IMG/VR virus record: IMGVR_UViG_3300033153_006744 | Span: 26,495 to 90,494 of that record | Length of the DNA stretch: 64,000 nt | Reading direction: 5' to 3' (one strand) | DNA from: a virus | Shown here: positions 5,871-55,067 of the stretch, one piece after another | How positions within the stretch are numbered: the stretch's first letter is position 1 | How the letters are laid out: every line of letters begins with the position of its first letter | Position numbers and translations under genes: made by a program | The notes under the pieces: generated by a model | Told to the model about the DNA's origin: nothing | What the model saw: the letters and a program-made list of their open reading frames with translations, nothing else | Databases searched by the model: none

Positions 5871-6208
5871 TACACAACTCCAAACAAATCGTTGTATCTA
5901 TCTAAAGTTTTTATTTTTTCCACATTAGGCAAACTCAAAACTTGCCCTGGCTTTAATGGCACAAAAGGATCTATTATATTATTTAACTCAGCAACGGCCC
6001 ACCACAATTGATTAGCGTTGAATTCTTCAGTGTAATATATATATCCTGTTATTCTAAATATGTTATTGTTTGTTCTAACTGTATATTTTAAATAATCTTC
6101 TGTCGTATAGTTTGTTTCATTTATAAAGTTAAAATATTCGTTATTATCTGAATCAATATTTATGTCTCTATATCTGTACCTAGACCAATCATTTATATAT
6201 AATTCCAT
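5870..6208 (-). CDS. LysM-like baseplate/tail protein X (gp53-like)
   Basis: 'LWWAVAELNNIIDPFVPLKPGQVLSLP' signature. Confidence 0.8.
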   Translation of the reverse strand: MELYINDWSRYRYRDINIDSDNNEYFNFINETNYTTEDYLKYTVRTNNNIFRITGYIYYTEEFNANQLWWAVAELNNIIDPFVPLKPGQVLSLPNVEKIKTLDRYNDLFGVV

Positions 6209-6216
6209 ATTTACCT

Positions 6217-6729
6217 CTATAAAACGGGAGAATTAAATCCATATTTCCTAACTCGTTCATAAGTTCTTATTTTTTCTGGCGTTATCTCTTCAAATGTAAC
6301 ATTTATAAAAGCAAAAGTAGCCAGCCCAGTTTCATCAAATTTTTCCATTGTTGAAGAAACATTTGTTATATAATATTCTCCAGCTATCATTTCTGGCCAT
6401 ATTAACAAATGAGGAGTTAAGCTAATGTTATTATAAACGTTTTCCTCGGGTGCGTATGTTGCAGCATAAAAAAAGTTAAGCCAGTTTTTCATTTCCCTAA
6501 CATCGTTTTGATTAACAGATCTTAGATATGCTCTTGATATAAAGAACTGTAACGTAAAAGGCTTTGTTTCTGTATGCTTGTAATTTAATATAACATTAGA
6601 GCTTGCAAGGCTATTGTTCTTTTCTAAGGCGGCCTGACTATTTAGCTCTAACATGCTAGGGTTCATTAAGGCTATCCTAGATTCATCTGTGTAAGTGTTT
6701 CTTATTTTAACTTTATATGTTTCTGCCAT
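6217..6729 (-). CDS. Tail tube initiator (gpU/CIS tube-like)
   Basis: 'MNPSML', 'YITNVSSTMEKFDETG...AFINVTFEE' motifs; position after the tape measure. Confidence 0.7.
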   Translation of the reverse strand: MAETYKVKIRNTYTDESRIALMNPSMLELNSQAALEKNNSLASSNVILNYKHTETKPFTLQFFISRAYLRSVNQNDVREMKNWLNFFYAATYAPEENVYNNISLTPHLLIWPEMIAGEYYITNVSSTMEKFDETGLATFAFINVTFEEITPEKIRTYERVRKYGFNSPVL

Positions 6730-9395
6730 TAAAAAGCCCCTGTTTCAACAAAATTTCTTCTATTAGATTCTTCAGCCCCTATGGAAACACCCTCTGCCAT
6801 AGCTTCTAAGTTTCCTTCTAACACTACTTTTATATCTTTTTGCTGTGATAAAGCTGCGAATATTTTTGACAACAAGACAGTTTGCCTCTCTGCAGTTTGT
6901 TGCTTTTGCTTTTCTTGTCCAGCTCCAGTGATTGGTGCTACAGCAAGAGCATCAGTTTTATCCATAGCCGAAATAATTGAATCTGGTTGCCCATCTTCTA
7001 ATGCTGACTTATATAGCATTCCCTTAAAGTCTTCTCTCGCTTTTTCTAAAGCTCCATCATCACTAGGTTTAAACTCAAAATCAGGCATTACTCTTTCGCT
7101 TGGCTTTAGCGTTGACTCTATATGACTAATTGTCTCAATTTTAAGGGCATCTATACCTAATTTATCTGCTATTGTATTAGCTTTTCTAATTAAGAAATTT
7201 ATACCATCAACTATTTTATTGATAATTCCTGAAAATATTAAACCAACTCCATAGGCAACGTCTTCAAAAAGAGCCATAAATGCTTGCTTTATCACATTTC
7301 CAATCCATTTTATTCTTTGCCATATATAATCAAATGTTCTAACTAAAGCTCCCCCGAGAAAAACCATAGTAATGCCAATCACTTCTTTAAAGTTTTCAAT
7401 AGTATATCTTAAAAACCTGAAAATACCAGCAACTCCTTTTGCTACAAATCCAAGTCCCTTAATTATCCAGCCAAAGTATAGGCCTACAGAAAAATATATA
7501 AACTCAAAGAATATACTAAAATGATTTTTTAGAAAATTAACTCCCTTAAGTATGCCATCAAAAATAAATCCAACTACATTACCGAGCCATTGAAACACAG
7601 TTGAATTAACTATAAGATCAAAAACATCTCCTATCAACCCAAACATTTCACTAAAGGCGTCACCAATATTTTTAGCACCATCTAAAAATCCTGATTGTTC
7701 TAATGCTCCAGCCATAGCCTTAAACATTCTTTTATAGAAATTAAATACAGACATAAATCCTTGCTTTATTTTCTTAACAACAACTATAACTACATCAAGA
7801 ACCTTTCCAAGAAAATCAATGGTTGCAATAACAGCTTTTTTCATAAAAGCAAAAGCTCTAACTATTCCAACATAGAAAGCTAATATAGTATTAAATGTTT
7901 TTGGATCAAACATTTGCTTAAATTCATTCATTGTACTTTGTCTAATTCCACCAAATCTTATAGTTTCATATAGCATTCTAAACAACGCAATAACGGGTTG
8001 CAGTTTATTTTGCAATATTTCCAAAGCATTCGATAAGCCACCAGCATTGTGTACAAATATAGCAAAAGCAATGCCTATTCCAGCTACAATTAAACCTAAT
8101 GGGCTAAACAACAACCCTATTTTAGTCAAAGGACTTATAAGTAAGAACATTGAGCCTTTTAATGCTCCAAGTAATCCAGATATAAGCATCAAAGATCCTG
8201 ACAAAATGCTAAGTCCGCCAAACATAGAGCTTATAATTAATATAGCTTTTTTTTGTGTATCACTTAAATTTTGAAAAGAACTTATTAAAGATTTTGCTCT
8301 TTCTGTTATTTTTATTATTGTTGGCAGTAATAATTTACCCAACCCTATAAGCAAGTCATTAAAGTTAGCTTTTAATATTTTTGTTTGTGCTGACATTGTT
8401 TTAGCCATTGTTTTATATGCTGCATTCGTTGCCCCAGCTTTTTCACCCATAGCCTCTAAAACACCATTAGCTGTTTTTCCATCATTTTTAATTAAAGCTA
8501 ATACAGCATTTAAGCCTCTTGCACTAAAAGCTTGCTGAAACTCTCTTTCAGGCATAACTTTTTTTAAATTTATCAAATAAGGAACCAATCCACCAGCTTG
8601 CAATATTCCTTTTTTACCCATCTCCATTCCAGACTTTCTTAAAGCCTTTGTCATGGCTGTAGAGGGTTTTATTAAGTTTTGCATTGCAGCATTTAAACCA
8701 GAAACCATCATGTTTGTCTGTAATCCTGACTTTGTACCTGTTGCTATAGATGCCAATAACTCATTATAACCTATTCCTAGGTTTTTAGCTGTAGATGCAA
8801 CCCTACCAACGTCATGTGACAATTCACTAATAGTTGTTTTACCCTCACGCATTGCAACGAAAAAAGCATCAGAAACATTAGTTGATTCTTCTACACTTAA
8901 GTCATAAGCATTTAAAACAGACGTCATGCCATCTACAGCAGTTGCAACATCTGTTACTCCACCAATAGCCATTTTATTAGCTTGAGTCATTAAGACCATT
9001 GCATTCGAAGCATCAACGGCGCCAGATGAAATTGCATCATAAAAACCTTTTGTAACGTTGGTCATGTCTCCGCCGTAAGTTGTTGCTAAAGCCCTTACTT
9101 CTGTTCCCAGATTTGATGTTGCAATCTGTTCAGCATTTAACAGTGTGTTTATTTCAGCTAATCCTTTTTCGTACGTAGAAAATGCACTTATACTTTTTTT
9201 AATACCCTGCATTTGAGCTAATCCAGCCGAAATTTGAGATATTCCCATTCCAACTTTCATGAAACTATTTTGTATGTTTTGCATATTTTGAACGGATTTC
9301 ACCTTCAGACTGGCAATACTTCTGTTAACTCTGTTTGCCACATTAGAAACATTATCTCGACCTTCAAAACTAAACCCTAATCCATATTTTAGCAT
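6729..9395 (-). CDS. Tail tape measure protein (TP901-like core)
   Basis: 'SDAFFVAMREGKTTISELS', Ala/Gly-rich helical repeats, hydrophobic central region. Start refined to ATG 9395 (MLKYGLG), preceded by an AGGGG RBS. Confidence 0.92.
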   Translation of the reverse strand: MLKYGLGFSFEGRDNVSNVANRVNRSIASLKVKSVQNMQNIQNSFMKVGMGISQISAGLAQMQGIKKSISAFSTYEKGLAEINTLLNAEQIATSNLGTEVRALATTYGGDMTNVTKGFYDAISSGAVDASNAMVLMTQANKMAIGGVTDVATAVDGMTSVLNAYDLSVEESTNVSDAFFVAMREGKTTISELSHDVGRVASTAKNLGIGYNELLASIATGTKSGLQTNMMVSGLNAAMQNLIKPSTAMTKALRKSGMEMGKKGILQAGGLVPYLINLKKVMPEREFQQAFSARGLNAVLALIKNDGKTANGVLEAMGEKAGATNAAYKTMAKTMSAQTKILKANFNDLLIGLGKLLLPTIIKITERAKSLISSFQNLSDTQKKAILIISSMFGGLSILSGSLMLISGLLGALKGSMFLLISPLTKIGLLFSPLGLIVAGIGIAFAIFVHNAGGLSNALEILQNKLQPVIALFRMLYETIRFGGIRQSTMNEFKQMFDPKTFNTILAFYVGIVRAFAFMKKAVIATIDFLGKVLDVVIVVVKKIKQGFMSVFNFYKRMFKAMAGALEQSGFLDGAKNIGDAFSEMFGLIGDVFDLIVNSTVFQWLGNVVGFIFDGILKGVNFLKNHFSIFFEFIYFSVGLYFGWIIKGLGFVAKGVAGIFRFLRYTIENFKEVIGITMVFLGGALVRTFDYIWQRIKWIGNVIKQAFMALFEDVAYGVGLIFSGIINKIVDGINFLIRKANTIADKLGIDALKIETISHIESTLKPSERVMPDFEFKPSDDGALEKAREDFKGMLYKSALEDGQPDSIISAMDKTDALAVAPITGAGQEKQKQQTAERQTVLLSKIFAALSQQKDIKVVLEGNLEAMAEGVSIGAEESNRRNFVETGAF

Positions 9396-22911: not shown

Positions 22912-23325
22912 TTAATTAAATAATTGTTTAACTTCGTCATTTTCTTTTTCGTCAAAGTTAAATATTAGTAAATAGTTATTGTTAATATATAATTCAAAGT
23001 TAAAAATAACATTGTTACGCTTAACTTCTAAATTAAAGCCAAAAACATCAGCCTCGCTTTTGGTAAAGCCTAGTTCGCTTAAGTCTGCTTCTATATCTTG
23101 CAGCCTTAACAGCCTTTCTTTTTCTAGGTTATTAGATCTAGTTGCTTGATCATGTGACATATCTGTCATGCTTTCTGGTTTTGATAGAAAGCCTTTTATT
23201 ATATCTTTGTTATAGCTATATATTAAAAGACATATATTGCCTATTAGTATGTAATTATCTTTTTCTTTAATGTATGCCTTCTTAAGCATGTGTTCTAAGT
23301 TATCAACAGTTCTTTCTTTTGTCAT
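22912..23325 (-). CDS. Hypothetical protein
   Basis: ATG 23325 with GGAG RBS; upstream TTGCTT..TATATA promoter-like sequence. Confidence 0.55.
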   Translation of the reverse strand: MTKERTVDNLEHMLKKAYIKEKDNYILIGNICLLIYSYNKDIIKGFLSKPESMTDMSHDQATRSNNLEKERLLRLQDIEADLSELGFTKSEADVFGFNLEVKRNNVIFNFELYINNNYLLIFNFDEKENDEVKQLFN

Positions 23326-23379
23326 AAAATCTCCGTAAATTAACATTGTATATATAGCATTTGTGCAATAAAAAAGCAA

Positions 23380-24042
23380 TTATTGTTTATCTTTGTGGTT
23401 GTTTAGCCTTATAAATGACAACACAACTAATAATTGCAACTCACTAAACTTAGAAAAAAACATCTTATTGTCATTGTATTTACTTAATCCGAACTTTCCG
23501 ATAACATTAAACTTTATACTTTTGCCACTTATTATTTCAGTTTTTGAGAACTTAAAGGCAATCATTTCCTTAGCTGTTTCATGAATTTCAAGCATATCAT
23601 CAAGATTTATTTTCACAAGCCCTTTGTCAGTGCCAATTGTTATTGAATCTTTATTATAATTAACCTTGCAAAAAAAGAAGAAATGTTTTTTATACGAGAA
23701 ATTAACACCAACCATAAATGGGCTTTTCTCCTTTTTGATTAAATCAAAGAGAACACTCCTGTTTTTAGTTGTTATAAACTCCTTTTCTGTAGCAAAAAAG
23801 TTAACTTGCCTTAATGTTTGGTTTTCTTTTAAGTTTTTGGTTTTAAACAAAGAAGAGCAAGTTAAGCATAATGTTTTTGAGTTATTCTTAAAAATATAGA
23901 AGTCATTAAAGTTAGCTGATACCGTATTCTTTATTAAGTATCCATTACTTACTTCGCAATTACACAATGCGCAGGTTCCTTTTTCTTTTCCATCTTCGTT
24001 TTTAATTATATGTTTATCTAGTATGTTAACTATATCTTTCAT
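23380..24042 (-). CDS. csf1: Type IV CRISPR large subunit Csf1 (Cas8-like)
   Basis: N-terminal Zn finger CALC...CLTC, 'VSANFNDF', 'PFMVGVNFSYKKH', 'FSKTEIISG' match type IV-B Csf1; adjacent to csf3. Confidence 0.75.
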   Translation of the reverse strand: MKDIVNILDKHIIKNEDGKEKGTCALCNCEVSNGYLIKNTVSANFNDFYIFKNNSKTLCLTCSSLFKTKNLKENQTLRQVNFFATEKEFITTKNRSVLFDLIKKEKSPFMVGVNFSYKKHFFFFCKVNYNKDSITIGTDKGLVKINLDDMLEIHETAKEMIAFKFSKTEIISGKSIKFNVIGKFGLSKYNDNKMFFSKFSELQLLVVLSFIRLNNHKDKQ

Positions 24043-24724
24043 TGTTCTCCTTTAGTTGTTTTGGGATTAATATATTTTCTTGATATTCACCTAGCCAATA
24101 TGGCGCACGATAAGACCCATAATCATTTACATAAGAGAAATCTCTATCTTTAAATATGTTATCAGCCATCACCTTAAGTGGCAGTGGTCTAAATAATAAA
24201 TATTTTTGCTCTTCTTTTTCGGCAATCGTAATCTCAAAACTTGAAAACCAACCGAACCCAGCCTTAACTTTTTTCCCAATCCCAACAATATAATCTACTA
24301 GTTCTTTTATCTTGTTTTTATCTCCTATAAAATAAAAAACTATATTATCAACAGAATTTATAACAATAGGCATGTCATAGCTTTTATAATATCCACTACC
24401 TATATTTACCTTTCTTTTGGCTTTTCCAAAATAACTAAGAAAATCATGTCTTGAATTCCATCGTTTCCGCCACTTGTCAATTGATATTTCTTTTTTCTCT
24501 ATTATTCCATAAGAACAAAGATAAAAACCTAATTTGTGTTTTTTTATGGGGATTAATTTTTCTATATTCTTATTTATTTCGGAACCATTCGAGGTTTTAA
24601 TGTCGGTGTTTTTTCTAAAATATTTCTGATAAACTGCATAAGAAATAATGCTGTCAAAAATAGGTATATCTGTATAAGCAATTGGAGATGACATTTTAAA
24701 TTTTATTTTATAAGTTATATCCAT
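24026..24724 (-). CDS. csf3: Type IV CRISPR Csf3 (Cas5-family RAMP)
   Basis: 'FDSIISYA', 'FYLCS', 'GSGYYKSYDMP', 'FYFIGD', G-rich loop 'GIGKKVKAGFG', 'RPLP', 'YRAPYW'. Confidence 0.85.
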   Translation of the reverse strand: MDITYKIKFKMSSPIAYTDIPIFDSIISYAVYQKYFRKNTDIKTSNGSEINKNIEKLIPIKKHKLGFYLCSYGIIEKKEISIDKWRKRWNSRHDFLSYFGKAKRKVNIGSGYYKSYDMPIVINSVDNIVFYFIGDKNKIKELVDYIVGIGKKVKAGFGWFSSFEITIAEKEEQKYLLFRPLPLKVMADNIFKDRDFSYVNDYGSYRAPYWLGEYQENILIPKQLKENNERYS

Positions 24725-25338
24725 GATTTTGAGAACTCCTTATTTCTAAACAAGTTTCCGAGTCCAGTAAATTGCTTTAACCTTAAGACCTCGTCCTTAT
24801 CCATCCCTAGTTGTTCACTTATCTTCTTGTCACTCCAGCCCATAAAATAAAGCTCTTCAACTATTTCACTCATAGATTGTATGCCATGCGTTCCTCTCGC
24901 CCTATTGTGTCTAATTGTACTAGCCATTCTTTCCTTTAAACTTTTTTCTATAACCACTAGTGGCAAATAGCCCTTGGTTCGTGTTTTTATGTCATCATAT
25001 TCCTTTCCAATTCTATTCCTGTGAAATCCATCAACAACAACATACTTATCTTGCTCTTTATCATAAAAAGATACAATTGGTTGAGTATATCCATCTTCTT
25101 TTATTGACCTATATAATAATTGCATTTCTGGAGGTGCAACCTTGTTTGGGTTGTAATTATTAGCCTTAACCCTATCTGCTTTTATCCACAAAACATTGCT
25201 GACTGGCTCTTCTTTAAGTGGGTTAATTTCGTTTAGTTTAGAATAAATGTCATTTAATAATTCTATCTTGTCATCTTGTTTTCTTATCTTCTTTATGTTG
25301 AAAATAAGTTCGTCAACCTTATCTAATAATTCTTTCAT
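24715..25338 (-). CDS. ibrB: IbrB/YbdM-like ParB/Srx-domain protein with C-terminal HTH
   Basis: 'ANNYNPNKVAPPEMQLLYRSIKEDGYTQPIV', 'VVDGFHR', 'STIRHNRARGTH', 'LGMDKDEVLRLKQ'. Confidence 0.85.
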   Translation of the reverse strand: MKELLDKVDELIFNIKKIRKQDDKIELLNDIYSKLNEINPLKEEPVSNVLWIKADRVKANNYNPNKVAPPEMQLLYRSIKEDGYTQPIVSFYDKEQDKYVVVDGFHRNRIGKEYDDIKTRTKGYLPLVVIEKSLKERMASTIRHNRARGTHGIQSMSEIVEELYFMGWSDKKISEQLGMDKDEVLRLKQFTGLGNLFRNKEFSKSWI

Positions 25339-26552
25339 TCTCCTAGCTCCTCTTTCATTTTATAATATTTTTCGTATTGATTTTTAGTTTGACCAAACGA
25401 CAAACTTTTACAGATTTTATCGTTCTTTAATATAACTTTAGCAAGCCTCCGCCATGATGGAGCCTTTTTAGAGCTTTCAAGTTTTTTGTCTGCTTCATCT
25501 GGAATTCCATCTGGATAACCATTTTTAGACCACCACCGAATAAATATCTTGAATTTTTGCCCATACCACTCTGCTTCAAATTTTGGAAGAGTTGCCATTA
25601 GAAAATTAACATAACTTTCCCATGTGTGATTTTTTGGCAATATTACCTTGTTGTTTCCTAATAAAAAGCTTTTGCAATATATGTTGCCAAAATTAGCTCC
25701 AGACACTCTATCAACAATTCTAGACCACGTTTCAGGTTCACACTGTCTAAATAAATTAAGACCTTTTCTTTGGTCATCTCCGTATGGCTGACATATTCTT
25801 GCTTCATGTATTGATAACCCCTGCATGTACATGAAATCATAAATTTTATTGTATGTATAGCTCTCGTTTCCAACAGAAACCCATATATCTTTAGTCTTCC
25901 AGTCATAAATAGGGTAAAAATTAAAAACATTCTCAACAATTTGAGTTGTCCACATTTTATCTTTATATATTTTTTTCTTCGTATTTTTAATGGTTCTATA
26001 TCTATTTAAACTTTCATCTGATCTTATTCCAACTCCACAGGCAATTTTTTCTTTTCCAACTTTGAACCACTCTGCAAACCTAACAACTAATTCTTCAAAC
26101 TCTATTCCTCTATGAAACCATTTCTCCCATTCTTTGGGCATGTTATTTTCGTTTATAACATATTTTGAATTAGGCATCGGCCTAACCCATTTATCTTCAT
26201 TTTCTTTATCCCAACAAATCCATTGTGGCTGGTAAACACTTACTGCATTTCTTAAATTTAAAGGCAAGCATAGCCAATAACCATCAATATCTTTATTGTT
26301 GAAAATTTCTTCAACATGCTTTATTGTAGACTTATACTGAGCCTCTAAGTCAATGAAAAGTATTTTTATTGGTATTTTGTTCTTTTTTTTCGCAATTTCA
26401 AGTGCTAGTTGAACCATTACACTAGAGTCTTTTCCGCCAGAAAAAGAAAAGCAAATCTCATCTTTGTCAAAGTTGTCAAAAATAAAATTAAGTCTTTCTA
26501 TTGCCTTGTCCCAAACATTTACTTTTGAATATGTTTTTGATTCACTGTTCAT
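25335..26552 (-). CDS. ibrA: IbrA/YbdN-like PAPS-reductase-family protein (DUF3440)
   Basis: PP-loop 'SFSGGKDS', 'DLEAQY', 'GIRSDESLNRY', 'YPIYDWKTKDIW', 'RICQPYGDDQ', 'PSWRRLAKVILKND'. Confidence 0.88.
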   Translation of the reverse strand: MNSESKTYSKVNVWDKAIERLNFIFDNFDKDEICFSFSGGKDSSVMVQLALEIAKKKNKIPIKILFIDLEAQYKSTIKHVEEIFNNKDIDGYWLCLPLNLRNAVSVYQPQWICWDKENEDKWVRPMPNSKYVINENNMPKEWEKWFHRGIEFEELVVRFAEWFKVGKEKIACGVGIRSDESLNRYRTIKNTKKKIYKDKMWTTQIVENVFNFYPIYDWKTKDIWVSVGNESYTYNKIYDFMYMQGLSIHEARICQPYGDDQRKGLNLFRQCEPETWSRIVDRVSGANFGNIYCKSFLLGNNKVILPKNHTWESYVNFLMATLPKFEAEWYGQKFKIFIRWWSKNGYPDGIPDEADKKLESSKKAPSWRRLAKVILKNDKICKSLSFGQTKNQYEKYYKMKEELGE

Positions 26553-26602: not shown

Positions 26603-27361
26603 CTATGTATATGCTTTTATTTCTGGATGAAAACTTAACATGAGATTGTATTGTTTTTTATAGTAATACTTTAACCATGAAAACTGACCTATTGTTGCAG
26701 CCGTTGGATCTACAAACCAAGATATTCTTATTTTAGCTGGATCATCTGTAAATCTTGTTTTATTATATGCCGGGTGTAGCAATTTATCTAATTTTCTACT
26801 GTAAATATATGCAAAAACATCATCCCCAGTTAAATCACAAATCGGATAAAACTGATATATCTTATTTTTCTTAGAATAAAATAATTTACCCATATGTTTT
26901 ATTAAATTTTCCCTTCTTTTGCTTTCTTCTTTTCTTATCCCAATCAAGGCAATTTTATAATCATTGTCCTGTTGGAAGTTTCTAATGGGCGTCATCATTG
27001 CCTTTTCAAACGCATAATTCTTGCACCCAGCATCATAAAAAGCCTTCTTTTTTGCATATTCATCTAGTATGTCAATTGGGGATTTTACTACATTTATTGT
27101 CTTATTGTGGTGTTTTTCCGCTAGTTTTATAATTCCGTAGCTCTCGGGTAGCTCATACCAAGAATCATGAAACATTATGTCTAAATTAGGGTTTGCCTCT
27201 AATGCAATATCTAGCATTACTAAACTATCCTTGCCAGTGCTATATGAAATAGAACCCTTTGTATTTCTTGTTTCTTTTTCAATAGAGCTCTTAACCAGCT
27301 CTATTTTTCCCTTAAACTCGTCTAGCTCTGCATACAACAAATAATATTCTTTATTTTTCAT
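26603..27361 (-). CDS. cysH: CysH-like PAPS-reductase-family protein (type IV-B associated)
   Basis: PP-loop 'SYSTGKDS', 'IGIRKEESKRR', 'YPICDLTGDDVFAYI', 'LHPAY'; overlaps the csf2 stop; start refined to ATG 27361. Confidence 0.85.
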   Translation of the reverse strand: MKNKEYYLLYAELDEFKGKIELVKSSIEKETRNTKGSISYSTGKDSLVMLDIALEANPNLDIMFHDSWYELPESYGIIKLAEKHHNKTINVVKSPIDILDEYAKKKAFYDAGCKNYAFEKAMMTPIRNFQQDNDYKIALIGIRKEESKRRENLIKHMGKLFYSKKNKIYQFYPICDLTGDDVFAYIYSRKLDKLLHPAYNKTRFTDDPAKIRISWFVDPTAATIGQFSWLKYYYKKQYNLMLSFHPEIKAYT

Positions 27362-28550
27362 TTTCTTTAACTCCAATAAAAGCTAGGATATCTTTTTTGT
27401 TTTTCTCTATATGCCTTAAGTATAAATTATTTGCATTTTCAGGAATTGTCAACTCTGACAAATCTATTTCAGATGAACCAGTTGCAAACATTCCGCCAAT
27501 AAACGGATTTTCTTTAAAAAGAATTAATGCATGCCAGAAGGCCGAAACAGATAATTCATTAAAATCCATCATTCTAAAGCCATGATTGAACTGAGTTCCT
27601 TTTGCAAAAACTTCATATTCATACTTCATATGAGTTGGGTTTTCATCTTTTTTGTCTTTTATCGCCTTTATTGATATATTCTTTTCATCTTTAGAGCTAT
27701 CTTTTCTGCTTTGAAAAATCATGTCCAAGTAAGACCAGAATGAGTTAATTCCTGTTTTCAACTCCACGCATTTAGGATATGCAAAACCAACAGATAATTG
27801 ACCTTCTATTGTCATGTTGCCTATTGCACTGCCAAAAACACCAAGCATTGGAATGCTATCTATTAGCTTTTCTCTTTTTTCTAAGTCCTCATATAGGGTA
27901 GACTCGGTCAAGGCTCCGCCAGTAAACAAAATATGATATAATTGTTTATCTATTTTTTTACATCCAACTCTTTTTAAGAAATCATACATCGCTAATCTTC
28001 TTAAGACGCCCCTAATGCTATTTCCAGATATACAAGGAATCAGCTCAAATGTTTTATTGTATGTTTTAAGTTTCTCTTTTTTTACATCTAATTTATGGTC
28101 TTTATCCTTGCTCTTCATTCTTAATAAAACAGTTATAGTGTGAGCCTCATCTCTAACTTTTGACAAAAACTCAACATCTGTTATTTGTTGTAGATAATTG
28201 AATGTTTTATCTTTTAAATCAGGCATTCTAACACCACATAAATCTGCAAATACTTCAAAAAATTGGAATCTATTTGAAGATGTTGCAGACCTTTTAATTT
28301 TTGAATATAGCTCATCCCATATTCCCATTAATCTCTTTCCTTTTATTTTGCTAAAGTCTATCTTAGAGTATATACTATAACAAACATCAACAATGATATT
28401 TCTAACATCATCATCTGAAAACGAGGTTAAAAAGTTCTCGTTTTTAACCATTATTTTCTGTCTCCTAAGCAGCTTTGTTGTTCCGTCTGTCTTATCGGAA
28501 CCCGTGTGAAGGAATGTTGTTCCAGTGAAATTGTAGTCAACTTTAATCAT
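27351..28550 (-). CDS. csf2: Type IV CRISPR backbone Csf2 (Cas7) with ~125-aa helical insertion
   Basis: 'LHTG...LLRRQKI', 'IPCISGNSIRGVLRR', 'LFTGGAL', 'PMLGVFGSA...IEGQLSVG', 'MKYEYEVFAKGT', 'IGGMFATG'. Confidence 0.88.
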   Translation of the reverse strand: MIKVDYNFTGTTFLHTGSDKTDGTTKLLRRQKIMVKNENFLTSFSDDDVRNIIVDVCYSIYSKIDFSKIKGKRLMGIWDELYSKIKRSATSSNRFQFFEVFADLCGVRMPDLKDKTFNYLQQITDVEFLSKVRDEAHTITVLLRMKSKDKDHKLDVKKEKLKTYNKTFELIPCISGNSIRGVLRRLAMYDFLKRVGCKKIDKQLYHILFTGGALTESTLYEDLEKREKLIDSIPMLGVFGSAIGNMTIEGQLSVGFAYPKCVELKTGINSFWSYLDMIFQSRKDSSKDEKNISIKAIKDKKDENPTHMKYEYEVFAKGTQFNHGFRMMDFNELSVSAFWHALILFKENPFIGGMFATGSSEIDLSELTIPENANNLYLRHIEKNKKDILAFIGVKENEK

Positions 28551-28605
28551 GTTTACTCCTTATTTAAGTTTAAGCATTGGGCTAATGCCTTTTGATTTTC
28601 CTATA

Positions 28606-29034
28606 CTATTCTTTTAAAAAGTTTAAATGTGCATTCATTGCAAATCTTGAGCTAAAAGAAGTTTTATCTTTATTTATTTTGCCTAATTCGTTTACCCTTG
28701 CAACAGTAAGAATAAAATTAGAGTTAGATTTTCTAAATTTATTAAAATAAAAAACCTCTTCGGTTTCGTCATTTTTGAACATATGGAATTCTTCCTGTAA
28801 TCTTTCTAGCTCAGTTTTTTTAGACAATATTTTTAACAAGAAAATTCCGTCCTCTTTTAAAACAAGTTCAACGTTAAATTTGTCTTCTAGTTCTTCTTTC
28901 TCTACTCTAGTACATTCAGCTGCAATGCACTCAAATTTTTTAGCATTATTACTTAGAACAACTAAATCTTTGTTAGCTTTAAATATAGTTAAGTTTTTAA
29001 AGTTTTTTCTAATTTCATTATATAATTTTTTCAT
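28606..29034 (-). CDS. Hypothetical protein, first gene of the csf operon
   Basis: AAGGAG RBS; directly under the 29.1 kb promoter cassette. Confidence 0.65.
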   Translation of the reverse strand: MKKLYNEIRKNFKNLTIFKANKDLVVLSNNAKKFECIAAECTRVEKEELEDKFNVELVLKEDGIFLLKILSKKTELERLQEEFHMFKNDETEEVFYFNKFRKSNSNFILTVARVNELGKINKDKTSFSSRFAMNAHLNFLKE

Positions 29035-38458: not shown

Positions 38459-39859
38459 TTAACCTCTAGTTTTATCAAATTCTTCTTTTATATCTTTAAA
38501 GTCTATTGTTTTGCTGTTTCTTATTAATTTAACATCATTAAAATTAGCTTTATGTTTAACATATCTATCTACAATTATATCGCAATATTTTTCATCCAAC
38601 TCCATTCCATAGCAAACTCTTTTTAATTGTTCACTTGCAATAATCGTTGTTCCACTACCGCAAAAAGGCTCAACAACTATATCTTTTTCTTTTGTAAACA
38701 TTGCAATAAATTCAGCAGGTAATTGAACTGGAAAAACCGCTGGATGGTCAGTTTTATTGCTTTTCTCCACTCCAATGTTAAAAACTGTTCCTTGAAAACC
38801 ATATTTATTTATATTGTGGCACACTGTATCTTCTATATGTCCTTTTTTGGCTCTTTTTACTGTTTTCATCTTCGCCGTCTCATAATATGAGTTTATTTTA
38901 GTGCGATTTTTTTCTTTGATTTCTTTGCCAAAAATAAAAATCCATTCATGCCATACGGGGATAAAGGCGGTTTCGTTGCCAATAGAACCAGAGTTATTTC
39001 TATTCCATATGCTCCAACTTAAAAACTTTAAATTTTCCTGTTTTGCTTTGTCAATATAAGTGTTCCAATAAGGGAATATTTCATTATTTTTTCTTTGCAA
39101 TCCAAGATTAATAATTTGATAGTTTACATATTCTCTGTATGTTTTAATAAAATTAACAATATTATCAACTTTTAAATCCTTTTCTCCATTATATTCTCTC
39201 ATGTCACTATAAGGAGGGCTAGTAAACAACATTTTAGATGTTTCGCCGTTCATCAGCTTGTTAACGTCTTCTTGACTTGTACTGCTACCACATAACAATC
39301 TATGTTTTCCCAATATCCATATATCCCCTTTTTTAGTATATGCAGCCTTCTTAATGTTTTCAGTAAAATCATCTTGCTCAACTTGCTTATCCTCTAAAAC
39401 ATCTAAGCCAACATTTTCTTCACTTTCATAATCTTCTAATTCTAAATTAAAATCTAAATCATCATCAGCAAAATCTAAAACATCATCAACGATTGTATAG
39501 CTGAGGTCTTCTAGTCCAAAATTATTTGATATATCATTGATTAAATCCGTTAATTTTTCCTCATTAACGCCAAACTTTGTTTCATTTGTTTCTATTGCAA
39601 TTCTTTTAGCTTGGGCTAATGATATGTTACCCAAATCATAACACATTGTATGTTTAACCTTTAACTCTCTTAAAATATCTAGCCTATGATTTCCATTTAC
39701 CACTTCATATTTATTTTTACTTATTTGCCTTACAATTATGTTTTCAATAATGCCATTCTTTTTTATATTGTTTTTTAATTTTTGGCTTAATCTTTTGTTT
39801 TCTTCTTTATAATTCCAATCCGCCTTGATTAATTGATTTATCTTTATGTTTTTAAACAT
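38459..39859 (-). CDS. ParB-domain / DNA amino-methyltransferase fusion (N4C/N6A, beta-class)
   Basis: ParB N-terminus 'VVNGNHRL'; 'GKHRLLCGSS', catalytic 'TSPPY', 'HPAVFP', SAM motif 'EPFCGSGTT'. Confidence 0.9.
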   Translation of the reverse strand: MFKNIKINQLIKADWNYKEENKRLSQKLKNNIKKNGIIENIIVRQISKNKYEVVNGNHRLDILRELKVKHTMCYDLGNISLAQAKRIAIETNETKFGVNEEKLTDLINDISNNFGLEDLSYTIVDDVLDFADDDLDFNLELEDYESEENVGLDVLEDKQVEQDDFTENIKKAAYTKKGDIWILGKHRLLCGSSTSQEDVNKLMNGETSKMLFTSPPYSDMREYNGEKDLKVDNIVNFIKTYREYVNYQIINLGLQRKNNEIFPYWNTYIDKAKQENLKFLSWSIWNRNNSGSIGNETAFIPVWHEWIFIFGKEIKEKNRTKINSYYETAKMKTVKRAKKGHIEDTVCHNINKYGFQGTVFNIGVEKSNKTDHPAVFPVQLPAEFIAMFTKEKDIVVEPFCGSGTTIIASEQLKRVCYGMELDEKYCDIIVDRYVKHKANFNDVKLIRNSKTIDFKDIKEEFDKTRG

Positions 39860-40430
39860 TGCCTACTCCTTTTAAAAACCCATAACCAGAACCATTTTTA
39901 TGACCTACACCTAAATATAATATAGGCTCATTATTCGTTTCTTCTTTAAACTTCAAGATAACTTTAAACGAATCAACTAAATTGCCCTTAAAGAAAACTT
40001 CTTCATTGCCATATTCAATCACAATGTCATCAACGTTATTTTTATCTATAATATTTTTATCTATATATTCAAAAACAAAAGAGTTTATATTGTTAACTTT
40101 TGATGTAATTATTCCACAAGGTTCGGTTTTGAACACTTTGCTTTTATCTAGCTCAAAAAACATCATGTTTGCCAAAGCTATTCCTATTCCATCGTAATTC
40201 CTAAACTTCAAAGAGTTCAATTCGTTCATTCTTTTAAGAAACGCATCAGATAAGCTTCTAAAGTAAACCGTAATAAAGCTTTTCCCGTCTTTAGTTAAGA
40301 ACCCTTCAGGATTGATTGCAAACTTATCTCTTGCTTGCAGGTGTAGCGTTAATGCTGTTATCATTTTTGCTTTTTGTTCGGTAATTTCTGTATCAAAAAG
40401 GAAGTCTATCTTGCCATTAATAAAATTCAT
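39852..40430 (-). CDS. cas6: Cas6-like RAMP protein (putative)
   Basis: C-terminal 'YLGVGHKNGSGYGFL' matches the Cas6 GhGxxxxxGhG loop; 192 aa with beta-rich pattern. The remainder is divergent. Confidence 0.55.
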   Translation of the reverse strand: MNFINGKIDFLFDTEITEQKAKMITALTLHLQARDKFAINPEGFLTKDGKSFITVYFRSLSDAFLKRMNELNSLKFRNYDGIGIALANMMFFELDKSKVFKTEPCGIITSKVNNINSFVFEYIDKNIIDKNNVDDIVIEYGNEEVFFKGNLVDSFKVILKFKEETNNEPILYLGVGHKNGSGYGFLKGVGNV

Positions 40431-54985: not shown

Positions 54986-55067
54986 GGTCCATTTTTGCAA
55001 ATCTAGGGGGTCCATTTTTACAGGGGGGTCCATTTCTGCAAATACAAGGGGTCCATTTTTACAAATC
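54986..55067. repeat. Four short direct repeats, core GGTCCATTT(T/C)T(A/G)CA
   Basis: Copies start at 54986, 55009, 55027 and 55050 (spacing 23/18/23); GC-rich island in AT-rich DNA. Confidence 0.85.

Follow-up and report, generated by a model that had tools for sequence, protein, structure and literature searches.

Introduction

To our knowledge, type IV-B is the least understood subtype among the class 1 CRISPR-Cas systems, with no array, no nuclease, an unknown RNA partner and an unexplained CysH-like enzyme. The solved complex of Mycobacterium sp. JS623 (7JHY) holds only Csf2 and Cas11 as proteins, in a ratio of six to five, and the helices of its Cas11 are arranged unlike those of the small subunits in types I and III (PMC7937560). 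Here we analyze a 64,000-nucleotide (nt) stretch of viral DNA (the window), bases 26,495–90,494 of the IMG/VR record IMGVR_UViG_3300033153_006744, in which a csf operon on the minus strand encodes a Csf2 of 399 amino acids (aa). With a probability of roughly 0.85, this gene is a type IV-B csf2 (cas7) that has taken up the small subunit Cas11 (Csf4) as an inserted domain. A preliminary description, made from the letters alone, had proposed such a Cas7::Cas11 domain-insertion fusion, and the proposal is supported by a Cas11 fold match, by homology to free cas11 genes and by the lack of the segment in short Csf2 proteins.

Cas7 and Cas11 are merged or substituted in other ways elsewhere in class 1. 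Cas7-11 (gRAMP, type III-E) and Cas7-11i (type III-I) hold Cas7 and Cas11 in one polypeptide (PMC9629832, PMC13404073, PMC12669027). The type I-F2 (I-Fv) Cascade has neither Cas8 nor Cas11, and its Cas7 wrist loops form a positively charged trench for the non-target strand (PMC12956352). Cas11 is also found within large-subunit genes, as C-terminal domains of Cas8 or Cas10 and as internally translated Cas11b (bioRxiv 10.1101/2024.10.02.616218, PMC12669027).

The locus in comparison with known systems

Csf2, Csf3, Csf1 and a CysH-like protein are common to the JS623 system and the window, and the solved complex holds counterparts for both parts of the window protein, the Cas7 core matching 7jhy Csf2 (Z 16.6, 24% identity) and the insert matching 7jhy Cas11 (Z 11.1). 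In contrast to JS623, Cas11 is here a domain inside Csf2 rather than the product of a separate gene, so that covalent linkage forces a 1:1 ratio of the Cas7 and Cas11 moieties where 7JHY shows 6 Csf2 to 5 Cas11 (PMC7937560), and the system is borne by a phage instead of an actinobacterial megaplasmid. Related IMG/VR loci comprise 17 with a long Csf2 (L001-L017) and five with a short one (L018-L022), to which four further short-form loci (L026-L029) were added. The short-Csf2 phage loci have the closest Cas7 core (33-35% identity) and the closest Cas11 (28%) among the loci examined, and they carry the same accessory genes as the window, including ibrA/ibrB in L018 and L020. There, cas11 is an open reading frame (ORF) of 112-191 aa abutting or overlapping the csf2 start, whereas in the window it lies within csf2 after codon 42.

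The III-E and III-I proteins are monomeric tandem arrays of whole Cas7 domains, three or four of them, and one Cas11, whereas the window protein is a single Cas7 fold split by Cas11 and presumably still polymerises. In sequence and in structure it is matched best by type IV Csf2 rather than by type III-E, and the origin of Csf2::Cas11 is independent of the III-E and III-I fusions and lies within type IV. Unlike the I-F2 substitute, which is not described as a Cas11 homologue in the accessible part of PMC12956352, that of the window is a Cas11-derived domain. The large-subunit cases resemble the window in that another effector gene contains the small subunit, but there the Cas11 part is terminal or released and its copy number is uncoupled from Cas7. 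Cas11 inserted into the fold of a polymerising Cas7 is thus a topology distinct from the known Cas7/Cas11 mergers, the third in class 1 beside tandem fusion (III-E, III-I) and loop replacement (I-F2). No description of Cas11 inside Csf2 was found in the literature searched, namely the accessible parts of PMC8175902, PMC11519345, PMC7937560, PMC7038947, bioRxiv 10.1101/2023.08.24.554615, PMC12669027, PMC10910872 and PMC12956352; variants of this kind could be listed in the supplementary locus tables that belong to PMC7038947 and PMC12669027.

The csf2 product is a Cas7 fold interrupted at its first hairpin

The gene and its parts, all on the minus strand and numbered in window positions, are as follows.

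27351..28550, minus strand: csf2::cas11, a 399-aa ORF for the Cas7 backbone subunit with an internal Cas11 domain
28556..28561, minus strand: Shine-Dalgarno motif AAGGAG, 5 nt ahead of the ATG (28550), as read from the sequence
28425..28550, minus strand: N-terminal Cas7 piece, aa 1-42, with strand 1 (2-10), a loop with G17/D19/G23 and the first hairpin strand (30-42)
28107..28415, minus strand: Cas11 (Csf4)-like domain, aa 46-148, seven helices, from models and from fold and sequence matches
28068..28106, minus strand: Lys/Glu-rich variable linker, aa 149-161 (conservation 0.28), leading back into the Cas7 fold
27351..28067, minus strand: C-terminal Cas7 core, aa 162-399 and stop, with the second hairpin strand (162-172), the GNSIRG loop and helix 1

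The product of this gene, 399 aa long, is a type IV-B Csf2/Cas7. It matches TIGR03115 at E 2.2e-9 and 37 bits, below the curated cut-off of 130, and its best sequence match in the PDB is 7jhy_e, 'Csf2 (Cas7)' (E 3.2e-8, query 164-362 against chain 55-261). The full-length AlphaFold2 model (predicted local distance difference test, pLDDT, 88.2; predicted template modelling score, pTM, 0.84) was aligned by VIA to type IV-A Csf2 with Z 18.2 and to 7jhy_a with Z 16.6 over 215 residues. A search returned 200 homologues, which among the matches listed are mostly ~390-440 aa long with 95-100% query coverage, and in PHROGs the Cas7 core corresponds to phrog_22746, whose function is unassigned there, the insert lying outside the match. 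A low-confidence hairpin of the modelled core, ~284-306, may be the thumb in our interpretation.

Along the model, a strand (2-10) and a second strand (30-42) are followed by seven helices (46-148), a further strand (162-172) and a helix (176-195) of the Cas7 core. The whole inserted segment, aa ~43-161 or window 28068-28424, occupies the beta-hairpin turn that follows strand 1 and precedes helix 1, joined on its N-side by only 3 residues in the model and on its C-side by a linker of 11-64 aa across 44 homologues. A comparable Lys/Glu-rich tail is found at the C-terminus of the free Cas11 of L028. The spacing that had first drawn attention to the gene is as described, with 'LRRQKI' at aa 28-33, 'IPCISGNSIRG' from aa 171 and ~138 residues between them in a 399-aa ORF. 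The segment was also said to be helical, and it is: the helical strings quoted are present, and 28100-28420, which corresponds to aa ~44-151, brackets the model helices of 46-148.

The public gene call for this protein, P0001, is 366 aa long, 100% identical and consistent with a start at Met34 (codon 28449-28451; Met1 at 28548-28550), and an AGGAG precedes the Met34 ATG within the coding sequence. Both would fit an artefact of gene calling, in which two genes or a frameshifted pair are read as one ORF or translation truly begins at Met34. Such an artefact is exceedingly improbable: the ORF is single and uninterrupted with AAGGAG ahead of its first ATG, and the internal AGGAG codes for the conserved Arg-Arg of LRRQK. 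Residues 1-33, the region of strand 1 of the Cas7 fold in the model, are conserved among homologues (G17, D19 and G23 invariant in a 44-sequence alignment), and the same architecture recurs in 170 proteins. A start at Met34 would remove Cas7 strand 1. Because of the AAGGAG before the first ATG and the conservation of residues 1-33, we take the 399-aa reading as right and P0001 as too short. This corrects an annotation: 'RAMP superfamily' is the best name that these proteins are given in public gene calls, and the start of at least one call is an internal Met.

Canonical Csf2 had been said to be devoid of the segment, and its short relatives indeed lack it. An exhaustive HMMER search with the window protein gave 634 representatives at E <= 0.001; among the best 150 of these 634, long forms (~390-500 aa) match throughout, and short forms (~260-300 aa) are also present, whose residues 31-56 are the counterparts of query residues 164-171. 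When the window protein is aligned with the 279-aa short Csf2 of L028, its residues 164-399 pair with 38-277 (33% identity, E 9e-33), and the two N-termini show a weak alignment as far as about residue 38 (residues 5-37 of the short protein). We scored the spacing from the N-terminal motif to GNSIRG in the 149 of 266 collected proteins that carry both motifs (117 were not scorable) and found it to be bimodal, at ~30 aa in 16 proteins and at 150-229 aa in 133, with none between. The short/long alignment and the bimodal spacing thus place ~125 residues at what is a tight hairpin turn in the short form.

Among the 266 proteins collected, 176 carry the insert domain. In 170 of them its start lies before the Cas7 core, at residue 44 or beyond, the remaining six being N-terminally truncated calls, and no tandem N-terminal Cas11-Csf2 fusion occurs among the 266. 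With Cas7 strand 1 lying ahead of the Cas11 domain, this is an internal insertion, which may point to an unusual origin by domain insertion or permutation, not by simple read-through of neighbouring genes.

The insert has the fold of type IV-B Cas11

Residues 43-160 were modelled alone, using the full-length homologues as alignment (pLDDT 91.5), and the domain-only model was compared with 48,161 PDB representatives by VIA-align. Chain 7jhy_h came first with Z 11.1, a root mean square deviation (rmsd) of 2.8 A and 112 of 118 residues covered, the runner-up reaching Z 5.2. Foldseek against 350,542 chains likewise placed the Cas11 of this complex at rank 1 (7jhy_g, TMq 0.71, rmsd 3.5 A), all other rows being at or below 0.39. 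The fold search that the preliminary description had called for therefore agrees with its expectation, the Cas11 of the JS623 complex heading both rankings. Chain 7jhy_h is annotated as 'Csf4 (Cas11)' and is identical to the ORF that lies between csf1 and csf2 in Mycobacterium sp. JS623 pMYCSM02, the match spanning residues 1-162 with E 1.5e-103. Since the helix arrangement of type IV Cas11 is type-specific, the match to the 7JHY Cas11 is more telling than one to a generic helical bundle would be. Near-invariant basic residues of the insert are R49, R73, K84, R133 and R144, and the isoelectric point (pI) of the insert is 8.9 in the window protein, with a median of 8.5 among homologues.

The insert is homologous to free cas11 genes

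With a hidden Markov model (HMM) built on the insert, we scanned every ORF of the window and of 22 related loci. The model recovered 18 of 18 long Csf2 proteins and then five of five free small ORFs (E 4.7e-8 to 3.2e-5), with noise beginning at E 0.3, and it matched four further free ORFs of L026-L029 with E 7.5e-24, 1.9e-20, 1.6e-12 and 5.6e-8. The relation is also found in pairwise and profile comparisons: BLASTP aligned window aa 48-148 with aa 12-114 of the L028 ORF (28% identity, E 2e-12), and hhalign of nine free Cas11 sequences against 44 long Csf2 sequences gave a probability of 99.1% and E 4.9e-19 over 103 columns, corresponding to window aa 45-149. R133 is invariant in all ten aligned sequences (insert, free ORFs and JS623 Cas11), and E135 is conserved in at least 90%. 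In fold as well as in sequence, the insert shares its ancestry with the free cas11 genes.

Free cas11 and the insert exclude each other

A free cas11 gene is present in nine of nine short-Csf2 loci and in none of the 17 long-Csf2 loci, so that across these 26 loci and the window the free gene and the insert are mutually exclusive. In all five loci L018-L022, a csf1-csf2 gap of 345-633 nt holds an ORF of 112-139 aa, in the same csf1-csf2 position that cas11 takes in JS623, and in all four loci L026-L029 an ORF of 114-191 aa abuts csf2. Short csf2 genes have free cas11 immediately upstream, and in each locus where csf1 was located (7/9), cas11 stands between it and csf2. Among the 17 long loci, csf1 adjoins csf2 or overlaps it in 14, which leaves no room for cas11; the remaining three and the window have other gene orders. 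An extra ORF of 82 aa stands between csf1 and cas11 in L021 (7230-7478, plus strand) and widens the gap there to 633 nt.

That the operon has no standalone cas11, as had been noted at first sight, holds for the entire source record: a profile of the nine free ORFs matches the 90,494 bp once, inside csf2 (28071-28409, E 2.2e-14). Two ORFs flanking the operon, of 142 aa (28606-29034) and 155 aa (22912-23379), were considered as hidden cas11 genes and rejected, as they matched neither Cas11 profile and lack both family matches and homologues throughout the 22 related loci.

Among GenBank phages (INPHARED) no long form was found, the sole match being a short Csf2 in Skermania phage SPI1. Plasmids of PLSDB gave partial matches only, with no place covering at least 80% of the full-length query, and with a core-only query short-type csf2 genes were found there. 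Tblastn alignments in PLSDB that ran from query residue 105-116 into an upstream gene were judged to be extension artefacts and were not used.

Phylogeny and polarity of the insertion

A tree was built on Cas7-core columns only (FastTree). Of 149 representatives, 137 entered it, the other 12 being under 255 aa; to these came the window protein and nine proteins from the loci, and once seven with incomplete cores had been removed, 140 tips remained. The 62 insert-bearing proteins form one clade with a support of 0.995. When rooted with two JS623 Csf2 proteins, the long clade has a support of 0.996 and is nested 12 nodes deep among short forms. That the insert-bearing clade is well supported and nested among short forms points to a single gain of the insert. 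The majority-residue fraction is 0.54 for the insert, close to the 0.63 of the core, and 0.28 for the linker (149-161). Collectively, this indicates one ancestral insertion that was maintained under selection.

The reverse polarity, in which the long form is ancestral and free cas11 arose from it by fission or excision, draws on midpoint rooting, under which long and short forms are sister groups, so that the unrooted tree alone carries no polarity. We consider this order of events very improbable. The polarity is read from those nodes that have better support and from outgroup parsimony: several of the nodes between the JS623 root and the long clade have supports of 0.97, 0.90, 0.99 and 0.86, the solved type IV-A Csf2 chain carries the motif at chain residues ~34-48, and Csm3 chains (185-285 modelled residues) match the model over at most 197 residues, too few for an insert of ~120 aa. 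Types IV-B and IV-C, moreover, both encode a separate Cas11 (PMC7937560).

P0133 (409 aa) falls into the long clade of the core tree, and its N-terminal ~170 residues have no insert-HMM match at E <= 1e-3; it may carry a divergent or replaced insert.

Points against a Cas11 origin of the insert

Several results weigh against the reading of the insert as an inherited Cas11 domain. On the side of structure, the Foldseek E-value of the Cas11 match is only 0.31, and by the caution attached to VIA a Z below ~13 can reflect a generic arrangement in helical bundles. The pI of the insert ranges from 5.1 to 10.3 among homologues, so that a Cas11-like basic surface is not universal. The sequence link to JS623 is weak: hhalign of the JS623 Cas11 pair against the insert profile gave a probability of 35% (E 3.9e-4), and against the profile of the first five free ORFs no match. 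Searches of the PDB by phmmer and hmmsearch with the insert or the 5-sequence free-Cas11 profile returned no Cas11, only chance rows at E >= 0.37, and neither Pfam nor NCBIfam has a family for the insert or the free ORFs. To these are added P0133, as a long-clade member missed by the insert HMM, and the poor support (0.10-0.47) of several deep FastTree nodes.

Some of these points could be accommodated if the helical insert were a lineage-specific elaboration of Cas7, comparable to the fingers of type I Cas7 or the I-F2 wrist loops, and Cas11-like by convergence. Helical bundles easily yield middling Z-scores, the Foldseek value just given would fit, and in type I-F2 the Cas7 wrist loops guide the non-target strand without Cas11 (PMC12956352). 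Convergence is nonetheless largely refuted, and we give it almost no weight. The insert is homologous to free ORFs in the canonical cas11 position by HMM (E 7.5e-24), profile-profile (99.1%) and BLASTP (E 2e-12) comparison, the two forms are strictly complementary in distribution, and the Cas11 match lies 6 Z units above the next row while covering 112 of 118 residues.

Proposed role of the inserted domain

On the reading as an inserted Cas11 subunit, Csf2::Cas11 would polymerise on RNA like other Csf2 proteins, each protomer bringing a tethered Cas11 domain. Together, the tethered domains would form the belly, the minor filament that normally lies on the Csf2-Csf2 interfaces, and the built-in domain would thus line the filament as a 1:1 belly. 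The stoichiometry would be n:n instead of the 6:5 of 7JHY, with one gene fewer required, and a short joint on the N-side, combined with a long and flexible linker on the C-side, would allow the domain to extend to a neighbouring interface. Presumably, the complex would act with Csf1, Csf3 and the CysH-like enzyme, here also with the IbrA/IbrB-like enzymes, in type IV-B function.

A Cas11-derived domain could also have been repurposed, for instance to dock the CysH-like or IbrA/IbrB-like enzymes or to select RNA, with no functional small-subunit filament. Room for this is given by the unassigned function of type IV-B, whose solved complex bound heterogeneous RNA (PMC7937560, PMC8175902), by the spread of insert pI noted above and by the 3-residue N-side joint, which may limit where the domain can sit. 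We regard repurposing as unlikely, because free cas11 is absent from 17 of 17 long loci and from the window phage, as expected if the insert took over, because R133 and E135 occur both in the insert and in free Cas11 proteins, that of the solved structure among them, and because a flexible C-side linker of 11-64 aa suits a domain that needs to reach an interface.

A large and mostly phage-borne clade (62 of 140 tree tips, 176 of 266 collected proteins) has merged Cas11 into Cas7 and lost the free gene. If the insert acts as the small subunit, this subunit would be indispensable to the activity of these systems, and the number of its copies can be fixed at 1:1 with the backbone. A three-protein core of Csf1, Csf2::Cas11 and Csf3 should also be simpler to reconstitute and image than one of four proteins; in the solved type IV-B complex Csf1 and Csf3 are reportedly invisible. 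More tentatively, and with less than even odds in our estimate, one polypeptide may supply backbone and belly as an n:n double filament on RNA, the most economical filament-forming class 1 core known, in which the Cas11 layer together with Csf1 and Csf3 positions the CysH-like (IbrA/IbrB-like) enzymes on nucleic acid as a phage device for counter-defence or nucleic-acid modification.

The csf operon and its surroundings

The source record of 90,494 bp has direct terminal repeats, and the G+C content of the window is ~31%. The csf operon runs on the minus strand in the order csf2-cysH-ibrA-ibrB-csf3-csf1, which sets it apart from the JS623 system. Its other genes and the two ORFs at its ends are listed here.

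28606-29034, minus strand: family-less ORF of 142 aa upstream of csf2, no library match
26603..27376, minus strand: cysH-like gene of the PAPS-reductase family, type IV-B accessory (PF01507, E 2.4e-18), overlapping the csf2 stop
25335-26552, minus strand: ibrA-like gene, PAPS_reduct+DUF3440 (PF11922, E 1.1e-37; PF01507, E 1.6e-13)
24715-25338, minus strand: ibrB-like gene, ParB_N (PF02195, E 4.8e-5)
24026..24724, minus strand: csf3 (cas5) (TIGR03116, E 3.6e-22, 79 bits, below the curated 140)
23380..24042, minus strand: csf1, cas8-like large subunit (TIGR03114, E 8.3e-12, 45 bits, below the curated 140)
22912-23379, minus strand: family-less ORF of 155 aa downstream of csf1, no library match

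By gene content, the operon is a phage-borne type IV-B-like module without a separate cas11: Csf2, Csf3, Csf1 and an adjacent cysH-like gene are present, and a separate cas11 is not. Csf3 and csf1 homologues are syntenic in 22 of 22 related loci examined, and cysH-like homologues adjoin csf2 in 20 of the 22. CasCysH lacks the catalytic cysteine. The label IbrA/IbrB for the pair of PAPS_reduct+DUF3440 and ParB_N proteins is our own, putative reading of their domains; in PHROGs the pair matches phrog_2302 and phrog_2159. The two ORFs of 142 and 155 aa look like phage-specific cargo, and the ORFs on both sides of this whole region are, to judge from their translations, probably structural genes.

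No CRISPR-like array was detected in the 64-kb window by Tandem Repeats Finder, and Rfam gave no match in the window. The strongest repeat of the window (54986-55067; score 128, period 41 or 23, ~2-4 copies) resembles a CRISPR neither in size nor in number.

With the ibrA/ibrB-like pair nested within the csf operon, the module encodes two PAPS-reductase-family enzymes. The pair stands beside csf genes in six of the 22 related loci (L008, L013, L016, L017, L018 and L020), with long as well as short forms. Gene order is fluid among the long-form loci, L015 having csf1-csf3-cysH-csf2 (5871-9215) and L009, L016 and the window having csf1 downstream of csf3, while the Csf2::Cas11 architecture stays constant despite these changes. 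Outside the operon, a 192-aa ORF (39852-40430, minus strand) has a weak RAMP match (PF03787, E 0.14) and no Cas6 match in NCBIfam, and it precedes a gene for a fusion of ParB_N and an N6_N4 DNA methyltransferase (38459-39859, minus strand; PF01555, E 1.9e-26).

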